In this document: positions 29,413-60,960 of the stretch, piece by piece | Layout of the letters: every line of letters begins with the position of its first letter | How positions within the stretch are numbered: the stretch's first letter is position 1 | Sequence record: MZ291552.2 | Source of the DNA: Escherichia phage vB_EcoM-UFV09 | Strand: one strand, 5' to 3' | Length of the DNA: 64,000 nucleotides | The notes under the pieces: model-generated | What the model was told of the DNA's origin: nothing | Databases searched by the model: none | What the model saw: only the letters and a program-made list of their open reading frames with translations | Position numbers and translations under genes: made by a program

Positions 29413-29413
<1 letters not shown>
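29216..29413 (-). CDS. cd.5: Hypothetical protein cd.5
   Basis: Start set at ATG overlapping the pseT stop (TAATG); track ORF extends to 29443. Confidence 0.6.
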
Positions 29414-30634
<1,221 letters not shown>

Positions 30635-30638
<4 letters not shown>

Positions 30639-32069: not shown

Positions 32070-33657
<1,588 letters not shown>

Positions 33658-58517: not shown

Positions 58518-59842
58518 TTGATTTCCTCTAAATCTTTAGTGTATTCTGTAACTACATCAGTAGTTTTCCAATATTCGTTTTCTTCTTTTTTAGCTTTAGC
58601 TTCTTCAGCAAGTTTCTTTGCTTCGTCGGAAGTCATATGAAAAATATTCATTCCGACTAGTTTATCAACATAAGAAGAATACATCTCAATTTTAGAAAGT
58701 TCTTCAGTCAGTTCTTTGCGAGTTTTACCCTGTACAACGATTTCACCTGAAATTACTTTCTTAATGAAATGTGCCTTGGCAAAAGCTAAACGAAAAGCTG
58801 ACTCAGTTTCTTTAATTTTATTATCAATTCGTTTTTGGACATAAGTTTTACGAACTTCAACGAAGTCTTTGATTAAATCAACTACGTTATCGTAAACTTG
58901 TAGTTTTCCTTTCTCATTAATAACCGTAATATTCTGAGAACGACGCTCAATCAACCCGAAGTCTTTCATAATTTTTGCATGGCGTTCTTCTTCATTATCG
59001 CTCAAAGAATATTCTTTACGGAATTTAACTTTAAAGCCAAACCCGTGCTCACCACAAGCATCATCCCATGTAATGAAGCCTTTATCTTCAAGCGGGTCTA
59101 AGATTTTACTCACATAAGTTTCACGATCATACTTATACGGAATCTCAGTGATATGCATTTGAGTTCGTGAAGTAAACTTATATGTTCCACGAATTTCATA
59201 TTGACCGTCAATTTCAACGACTTCACCGCGAAATTCTGGGAATTCTACCTTTGGTTTAGTTACTTTCTTTCCTTGAAGAGCTTGCAATACAGCTTTCTTG
59301 ACAGAAGAAACACTATGAGGAAGAATGTAAGTTGCATAACCAGTTGCAATACCGGAAACACCATTAAGAAGAACAGTAGGAATAATAGGCAAATAGAAAG
59401 CAGGCGGAATGTGTTCTTTATCTTGATGTACCGGAGCATATTCAGTATCTTTATATACGCTATAGAAATTTTTACTTACACGAGCAAAAATATAACGACT
59501 TGCCGCTGCTTTTTGAACGGTACGAGAACCAAAGTTTCCTTGACCATCTAACAAAGGAAAGTTATTATTCCAAGTATTAGCCATCAAAGCCCCCGCGTCT
59601 TGCGCAGAGTTTTCACCATGATGATATCCAAGGTCCGCTACACCACCTGCAATAGAAGCGAGTTTGTGAAACTTATCTTTATTTCCTCGTGCCAAATCAA
59701 GAGCTCGAGCAATAACAAATCGTTGGACTGGCTTAAATCCATCAATCATATTTGGAATAGCACGATTTTCAACCGTGTACATAGCATAAGCCAATGCTTC
59801 ATTATCAATGATACTTTTTAAATCGCGATTATTCAGTTGCAT
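58514..59842 (-). CDS. 52: DNA topoisomerase II medium subunit gp52
   Basis: 442-aa ORF at the T4 gene 52 position. Confidence 0.93.
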   Translation of the reverse strand: MQLNNRDLKSIIDNEALAYAMYTVENRAIPNMIDGFKPVQRFVIARALDLARGNKDKFHKLASIAGGVADLGYHHGENSAQDAGALMANTWNNNFPLLDGQGNFGSRTVQKAAASRYIFARVSKNFYSVYKDTEYAPVHQDKEHIPPAFYLPIIPTVLLNGVSGIATGYATYILPHSVSSVKKAVLQALQGKKVTKPKVEFPEFRGEVVEIDGQYEIRGTYKFTSRTQMHITEIPYKYDRETYVSKILDPLEDKGFITWDDACGEHGFGFKVKFRKEYSLSDNEEERHAKIMKDFGLIERRSQNITVINEKGKLQVYDNVVDLIKDFVEVRKTYVQKRIDNKIKETESAFRLAFAKAHFIKKVISGEIVVQGKTRKELTEELSKIEMYSSYVDKLVGMNIFHMTSDEAKKLAEEAKAKKEENEYWKTTDVVTEYTKDLEEIK

Positions 59843-59846
59843 AAAT

Positions 59847-59987
59847 TTACCATACTAGTGAATGTAGTGCCATAATAACATCAGAAATGAAAAGCACGAC
59901 TTGAATTAATCCGAACATTACTCCATAATATAGTGCTACTAATAAAGTAGCAAGGGCTAATGAATAGCCCAAGATTTTCTTAATCAT
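59847..59987 (-). CDS. Small hydrophobic membrane protein (46 aa)
   Basis: Hand-translated; no clear Shine-Dalgarno; ATG lies 3 nt upstream of the ac stop. Confidence 0.4.
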   Translation of the reverse strand: MIKKILGYSLALATLLVALYYGVMFGLIQVVLFISDVIMALHSLVW

Positions 59988-60138
59988 TAGTAGATAACAA
60001 CACAAATGTTAAATATGCACACATACCCTGAGCTAAAGCTTGCGAAAACACACTGCTGGCATCAATACAGATAGTTAAAACACATGCTACTATCCAACAA
60101 ATAAATGAAATAACTCCTAATAATTTTGCAATATTCAT
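59980..60138 (-). CDS. ac: Small membrane protein (52 aa), probable Ac (acridine sensitivity)
   Basis: Hand-translated; GAGGAAAAT Shine-Dalgarno; size and position match what I recall of T4 ac. Confidence 0.5.
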   Translation of the reverse strand: MNIAKLLGVISFICWIVACVLTICIDASSVFSQALAQGMCAYLTFVLLSTND

Positions 60139-60148
60139 ATTTTCCTCA

Positions 60149-60226
60149 CTAGCGTCCGAAGACGCCTTTAGTTTTAAGATTATTACGATAGAACTGCATC
60201 ACATGTTCGTTATGGAAATTACTCAT
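60149..60226 (-). CDS. stp: Stp peptide (25 codons), activator of the host PrrC anticodon nuclease
   Basis: Hand-translated [25 protein letters not shown]-stop; ATG overlaps the ndd stop (TAATG). Confidence 0.65.
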
Positions 60227-60684
60227 TAATATGCCTGCAAAACAAATTTAAAGTTATCAGCCAACATACGGTTCATTTCTTCAAGTGTTTGATACTCAGA
60301 ATGATGATTACGAGTAAACGCTAAAGCTAACTGTCCTTTTCCAAATCCCGTCGTCAGAGGTTTCATCTTAGAAGCAGGCAGATAAAATACTGTGTATGGA
60401 ACATTGTTATTTGCAATAGTACGCGCAAGCTGAGACCGGCGTTGACGAATATGACTTAAAACTGCGCTGAATCCTTGCTTAGAACGCTGATTACCTACAT
60501 AAAATCGTGCAGACACACATGGATTACTAAATAGACGACCATCTAATTTACTCACTAAAAAGTAAAATCCAGGTTTAGATAAAAAGTCTTTATGTGGAAC
60601 TCCCAAAAACCATTCACCGTTCTTGATTGTACCAATAACGGTAGCGCCTGCATTATTCAGATCAGTAACAGTCATATATTTCAT
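60226..60684 (-). CDS. ndd: Ndd nucleoid disruption protein
   Basis: Internal ATG (MKYMTVTDL...) with GAGGAAAT Shine-Dalgarno; track ORF extends to 60732. Confidence 0.85.
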
Positions 60685-60744
60685 ATTAATTTCCTCTAAA
60701 TTATTTTCTACTCCAAGGCCGCATGAATACATACGGCCGATAAA

Positions 60745-60960
60745 TTAATCGTCGCAGTCGACGCTCAATTCCCAAAACTCTTCTACAGTATAAGTTTCAG
60801 TATCATTTTCAATACAGAAACGTTCATTACTGTTATTTGCTAAAGTAGCATTAACTGTCGGTTTCTCGCTAGTGCTCTTAAGAGGTGAAATACGAATTAA
60901 CTGATCACCGTTATCTAAACAGAAAATTTCACCAACTTTTACATCTTTAAAACTTTTCAT
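60745..60960 (-). CDS. Hypothetical protein (71 aa)
   Basis: ORF upstream of ndd. Confidence 0.6.
   Translation of the reverse strand: MKSFKDVKVGEIFCLDNGDQLIRISPLKSTSEKPTVNATLANNSNERFCIENDTETYTVEEFWELSVDCDD

Follow-up and report, generated by a model that had tools for sequence, protein, structure and literature searches.

The locus between ndd and ac in this phage raises two linked questions: whether a 25-codon open reading frame (ORF) is the gene for Stp, and what it means that the frame closes one codon earlier than the T4 gene does. Here, the window refers to the whole 64-kb stretch of DNA that was analyzed. The preliminary description of the window had reported the ORF and read it as stp without giving its strand; the ORF is present and lies on the minus strand (Table 1). 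By itself, a 25-codon ORF is uninformative, since 3.5 kb contain 45 ORFs with a length of 20 aa or more. The analysis covered alignment, family membership, gene order and allele frequencies.

Table 1. Coordinates of the features discussed (positions in the window unless another record is named).
Feature	Position	Strand	Description	Evidence
pseT	29413..30318	minus	polynucleotide 5'-kinase/3'-phosphatase (Pnk); healing step of tRNA-Lys repair	Pfam PF25109 and AAA_33 (PF13671)
ORF directly upstream of pseT	30318-30638	minus	106 aa	
rnlA (gene 63)	32070..33194	minus	RNA ligase 1 (Rnl1); sealing step of tRNA-Lys repair	Pfam PF09511 and PF20819
ac	59980..60138	minus	acridine resistance membrane protein; directly downstream of stp	PHROG 2501; annotated as ac in matching records
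in-frame TGA after codon 26	60146..60148	minus	stop codon of T4 stp; back-up stop in the window; overlaps the ac ribosome-binding site uGAGGaaaauAUG	
codon 26 of stp	60149..60151	minus	polymorphic site; TAG here, CAG (Gln) in T4	
stp	60149..60226	minus (60226→60149)	25 codons and TAG	ORF, translation, T4 alignment, Pfam PF08133, PHROG 6763
RNA hairpin GCGUC-UUCG-GACGC	60151..60166	minus	stem-loop at the 3' end of stp	palindrome from consensus scan; folds of the window, T4, JS10 and VR25 alleles
ndd	60226..60684	minus	nucleoid disruption protein	Pfam PF06591, E=1.7e-94; synteny annotated in T4, RB27, JS10 and RB51
upstream extension of the mechanical ndd ORF	60685-60732	minus	16 codons upstream of the T4-type start	
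Stp of Kagunavirus PDP21P8	OZ035783.1 41066-41140		25 aa	
Stp of HelliStehle_Bas95	PQ850607.1 51552-51626	minus	25 aa	

The predicted peptide agreed with T4 Stp at all 25 of its positions (T4 residues 1-25), so that residues 1-18, including residues 4-14, are those of T4. It matched Pfam PF08133, the anticodon nuclease activator family, with 72.1 bits (E=2e-20; gathering cut-off, 25 bits) over profile positions 1-25 of 26, and PHROG 6763 with E=1.6e-20. In function, this family is marked by activation of the latent PrrC nuclease and by inhibition of type IC restriction enzymes (EcoprrI, EcoR124I), and both activities would be expected of the window peptide. Although the peptide has 25 rather than 26 residues, length is no defining feature of this family, whose Pfam-positive or annotated members span 25-27 aa. 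The T4 reference genome (NC_000866) annotates stp as an 81-nt gene for the "Stp polypeptide (26 amino acids)", ending in Gln, just as the preliminary description had stated; T4 Stp does not stop at Arg-25. The sole coding difference of the window from T4 and RB27 is a C→T change in the first base of codon 26 (plus-strand coordinate 60151), which converts CAG to TAG, and the TAG that had been noticed after Arg-25 is there, followed by TGA. Compared with T4, the window gene lacks Gln-26 and carries two synonymous changes, H8 CAC->CAT and N15 AAC->AAT. Judged by alignment and profile score, the identification of this ORF as stp, which the preliminary description had proposed, is far above chance despite the shortness of the frame.

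The surroundings of the gene agree with this assignment. The order in the window is the canonical ndd–stp–ac–52.1–52, where 52 is a topoisomerase subunit gene, and the position of stp between ndd and ac, upstream of 52.1 and 52, is the one annotated in T4, RB27, JS10 and RB51. The stp ATG and the ndd stop codon share base 60226 in a TAATG overlap. On the 3' side, Arg-25 is followed by the TAG, the in-frame TGA, a GAGG ribosome-binding site and the ac ATG at 60138; the segment after the TGA reads GAGGAAAAT-ATG and comprises the ribosome-binding site and the start of ac. Over positions 59800 to 60800, the sequence matches that of Escherichia phages vB_EcoM-UFV05/06/10/11 at 100% identity, and many further Tequatrovirus genomes reach 97-98.5%. 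The start of ndd is annotated in two ways: the mechanical ORF of the window corresponds to a long form, also annotated in UFV05 and RB27, while T4, EH2 and teqsoen have a short form that is preceded by GAGGAAAUUAAU. The long start falls within the ndd.1-ndd intergenic hairpin, and the long form is probably an over-extension.

To determine how frequent the early stop is, we conducted a megablast census in a 50,697-record phage collection, using short queries in which every 28-base seed was forced to include codon 26, so that a match required that exact codon. CAG (26 aa, Gln) was found in 425 records, TAA (25 aa) in 58, CCT (26 aa, Pro) in 22 and TAG (25 aa) in 9; a 25-residue Stp, with a stop at codon 26, is thus encoded in about 13% of records, in counts that include GenBank/RefSeq duplicates and miss alleles without exact 28-mer flanks. 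Cruder megablast counts, based on the first base only, were 63 versus 433. A scan of IMG/VR without any constraint on codon 26 yielded just 10 contigs, a number that does not suffice for counting alleles.

The nine TAG records represent eight phages and at least three stp haplotypes. UFV05/06/10/11, of which UFV05 is from Brazil, share the haplotype of the window; EC121, SA20RB (South Africa) and GEP001 (China) carry V22I in addition, and KIT06 (Viet Nam) carries T19I. In these last four phages the TAG is followed by TGA, as in the window, and their genes also differ from that of the window at synonymous sites. Because of V22I or T19I together with the differing synonymous sites, we regard the TAG carriers as independent haplotypes, and the four carriers with a country on record come from four countries. 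The TAA alleles include those of RB51 (Tequatrovirus) and of JS10, QL01 and MX01 (Dhakavirus). The RefSeq Stp entries of JS10 (YP_002922605) and RB51 (YP_002854218) have the same length as that of the window and end at Arg-25; in spite of the different genus, JS10 has the same peptide as the window at every residue, while RB51 also has L17F, and in both phages codon 26 is TAA rather than TAG. Their 78-nt ORFs are annotated in RefSeq as "stp: activator of host PrrC lysyl-tRNA endonuclease". The 25-residue allele is thus already annotated; the gene in the window is a known one, and its polymorphism is frequent and very probably neutral.

The haplotypes indicate that TAG at codon 26 is a recurrent natural allele and not a private lesion. 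Of the two readings offered at the outset, natural variation or a terminal nonsense change, the former is the right framing in view of the census. The latter is also literally true on the sequences compared: EH2 and teqsoen, the nearest relatives at the locus, are identical to the window in the DNA of the other 25 codons and have CAG at codon 26, and the window lineage differs from them by a single transition that reads as a one-base terminal nonsense difference. Signals for the ancestral state conflict, as these nearest relatives encode Gln, whereas Dhakavirus and two 25-aa copies outside the T4 family have a stop.

In the family at large, Stp peptides differ in the length and sequence of their C-terminal tail, and residues 1-18 are near-constant. 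The tail reads …NFGILGFKK in T2 Stp (27 aa) and …LTGVFGRP in VR25 and JS98 copy 1 (26 aa); Stp has 26 aa in Tunavirus Lg3 and 27 aa in Skatevirus seszw. All of these, together with the 25-aa copies of Kagunavirus PDP21P8 and HelliStehle_Bas95, lie above the PF08133 threshold, with 58-66 bits for PDP21P8 and Bas95 and 31-42 bits, over profile positions 1-18, for Lg3 and seszw. The window gene differs from the Kagunavirus copy by 8 synonymous and 2 non-synonymous codons, and from the Bas95 copy by 9 and 4, respectively. The change being mostly synonymous, the translated peptide appears to be under purifying selection. The label of Stp as a 26-mer is therefore better read as 25-27 residues with a variable, dispensable tail.

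Stp-family peptides are thus also present outside the T4 family (Straboviridae), where they are mostly unannotated. A tblastn search for Stp gave hits in several hundred records of phages of Salmonella, Citrobacter and Klebsiella, and the siphovirus version is filed apart in PHROGs as phrog_28068, 'unknown function'; a limited literature search found no paper on Stp homologues outside the T4 family. In Kagunavirus PDP21P8, which has Stp, T4-type Pnk and Rnl1 were not detected by tblastn (best E>0.7). It has been proposed that Stp is primarily an anti-type-IC-restriction factor, and the presence of Stp without these two enzymes fits that role. In some Dhakavirus genomes, seen as IMG/VR contigs, the stp-ac module is duplicated in tandem (about 295 nt). 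Copy 1 encodes a divergent 26-aa Stp, and copy 2 has the standard 25-aa form with TAA, in which the ATG is replaced by CGG; judging from this substitution, copy 2 is probably decaying or would need an internal start.

What the shorter peptide would do can be approached from work on T4. According to published accounts (PMC3014915; PMC1484252; PMC12707154), the target of Stp is EcoprrI, a type IC restriction enzyme. By binding it, Stp inhibits restriction and unmasks the associated latent anticodon nuclease PrrC; PrrC cleaves tRNA-Lys, and T4 Pnk and Rnl1 repair the cut tRNA-Lys. As relayed in the review by Uzan & Miller (PMC3014915), Penner et al. 1995 found both Stp activities only moderately lower after deletion of the 8 C-terminal codons, and suppressor (loss-of-function) mutations clustered in residues 4-14. 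The review also describes the N-terminal 18 residues as almost absolutely conserved and the rest as polymorphic, with both activities depending mostly on the same residues (PMC3014915).

A 25-residue Stp keeps the whole functional N-proximal region, and from this literature we infer that it is expressed and active and would act like T4 Stp. The window peptide would bind EcoprrI of the host and inhibit DNA restriction; this inhibition would release the associated latent PrrC, which would cut tRNA-Lys, and the break would in turn be healed by Pnk and sealed by Rnl1, both encoded by the phage itself. Loss of Gln-26 is expected to be near-neutral because a C-terminal deletion of eight codons is tolerated and the critical residues 4-14 are unchanged. 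A small quantitative effect may nevertheless exist, given the 'moderately' lower activity of the eight-codon truncation. No solved structure contains Stp that would show what its C-terminus contacts. There are no tRNA genes within the 64-kb window, which excludes phage-encoded amber suppression in this stretch. Taken together, the window very likely carries the stp of a T4-like phage (Tequatrovirus) in the common allele with a stop at codon 26, whose product, as far as sequence can tell, should act like T4 Stp.

The 3' end of stp also has a structural feature at the RNA level. A scan for promoter and terminator consensus sequences around the locus gave matches at chance level, and its only yield was a palindrome. 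The palindrome corresponds to a hairpin built from stp codons 21-25 (GGC GUC UUC GGA CGC), with a C(UUCG)G tetraloop, a loop type that is very stable. The hairpin sits 5 nt upstream of the ac ribosome-binding site, and it is retained in JS10 and in VR25, where the loop is UUUG.

Several other explanations of the locus were weighed against this reading. The ORF is very short, under the cut-off of most gene callers, and stp is unannotated in UFV05 (OP572230), EC121 (NC_054909), GEP001 (PV173775), SA20RB (OL960581), KIT06 (OQ349392), EH2 (OZ034684) and teqsoen (MN895436), as well as in UFV06/10/11, which might suggest a chance open frame rather than a gene. However, its Pfam score of 72 bits against a cut-off of 25, the identity of its peptide to T4 Stp, which has been characterised by genetics and biochemistry, and its conservation among unrelated phage backgrounds, where most codon changes are synonymous, refute this interpretation, and we regard it as vanishingly improbable. 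A second view would accept the gene and confine the TAG to one isolate, in which it would have arisen recently by nonsense mutation or in the laboratory, or would reflect an error of sequencing. The single transition that separates the window from EH2 and teqsoen is compatible with such an event, and the four 100%-identical UFV genomes share one laboratory. The same TAG nevertheless occurs on other haplotypes in EC121, GEP001, SA20RB and KIT06, with China, South Africa and Viet Nam among their origins, and codon 26 is a stop in the form of TAA in 58 more records, including the genus Dhakavirus. A private origin is on these comparisons extremely unlikely and can be considered effectively refuted.

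A natural allele might still differ in function, either as a partial loss-of-function or escape form that inhibits type IC restriction but triggers PrrC less, or as a form that depends on a supE host. An amber codon followed by TGA would regenerate the exact T4 sequence in a glutamine-inserting suppressor host, so that in supE strains the TAG could be read as Gln and T4 Stp restored. The tail is moreover the variable part of the family, as a region engaged in an arms race would be, and the loss of 8 C-terminal residues has a measurable, if moderate, effect according to the review (PMC3014915). The window allele, however, lacks one residue only and retains residues 4-14, and 1-18 overall, as in T4; the same source attributes both activities mostly to the same residues (PMC3014915). 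The constraint on codon 26 seems weak, given that it is Gln, Pro or a stop in peptides that are otherwise near-identical; Pnk and Rnl1 are kept intact, and a suppressor tRNA was not found in the window. A functional difference is accordingly very unlikely. Somewhat less remote, although still unlikely, is the possibility that the first base of codon 26 is constrained by the hairpin and the ac ribosome-binding site rather than by the peptide. What is kept would then be a pyrimidine able to pair with G, and the toggling between sense and stop would follow from it. This base adds the next pair to the stem, G-C in T4 and G.U in the window, and a pyrimidine begins all four alleles found (CAG, CCT, TAG and TAA). 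The z-scores of the fold are only about -2, however; C/T transitions are the commonest substitution in any case, so that the pattern may be a coincidence, and the hairpin is wholly missing in T2 and in the copies outside the T4 family. A constraint of this kind would supplement the main explanation rather than take its place. We also give little weight to the idea that the sense/stop toggling is itself non-neutral and tunes either the balance between restriction inhibition and PrrC triggering or a junction hairpin that sets ac translation or mRNA stability. If it were true, the C-terminus of Stp in the TAG case would depend on an amber suppressor in the host.

A natural and near-neutral codon-26 stop in an ordinary, known gene thus remains our preferred reading, and its biological significance is very probably small. 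Its practical value lies in annotation. The exact allele of the window is without independent annotation, as stp is left out of the closest public records, among them UFV05 and EC121; the gene is missing there because its length falls under gene-caller limits, and adding it would correct these genomes. Product names at the locus are also odd in places: GEP001 calls the ac product 'sugar ABC transporter permease', and SA20RB lists ndd as 'naphthalene 1,2-dioxygenase'.

The countermeasures to the PrrC nuclease, Pnk and Rnl1, had been reported in the window together with Stp, and both genes are present at the positions given for them, on the minus strand. The pseT product aligns over residues 1-301 with residues 1-301 of T4 Pnk (PDB 1LTQ), full-length, without gaps and near-identical, with a handful of substitutions. 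It has an N-terminal P-loop kinase domain (PF13671) and a C-terminal HAD phosphatase domain (PF25109), and K15, S16, D35, R38, R126, D165, D167, R176, R213, D254 and D278, the catalytic residues examined, are all present. The rnlA product (residues 1-374) likewise aligns full-length, without gaps and near-identically with T4 Rnl1 (PDB 2C5U). Its nucleotidyltransferase domain with the motif I lysine and the Rnl1-specific C-terminal domain are present, as are K99 (in the K99-E-D-G motif), E159, E227, K240 and K242, the catalytic residues examined in this enzyme. The substitutions that separate the two window enzymes from those of T4 are conservative.

That the window holds both sides of a phage-host conflict, as had been stated, is correct as far as the genes are concerned, but its significance was overstated. 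In T4, pseT (134002-134907), rnlA (136340-137464) and stp (165505-165585) lie on one strand, and their strand and relative order are the same here, with a spacing to stp of 30.7 kb compared with 31.5 kb in T4. Because the T4 spacing is almost the same, the occurrence of all three genes within a 64-kb window is simply the canonical layout. The ORF directly upstream of pseT encodes 106 aa, while its T4 counterpart, pseT.1, encodes 75 aa (228 nt); the distance between pseT and rnlA differs from that in T4 by about 320 nt, in part because of this longer ORF. The interplay of Stp, PrrC, Pnk and Rnl1 is a textbook case of phage-host conflict, and this phage has the standard set in the standard order. 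At stp itself, the window shares with T4 (NP_049878) residues 1-25, the placement between ndd and ac, the TAATG overlap, the TGA after codon 26 and the ribosome-binding site of ac.
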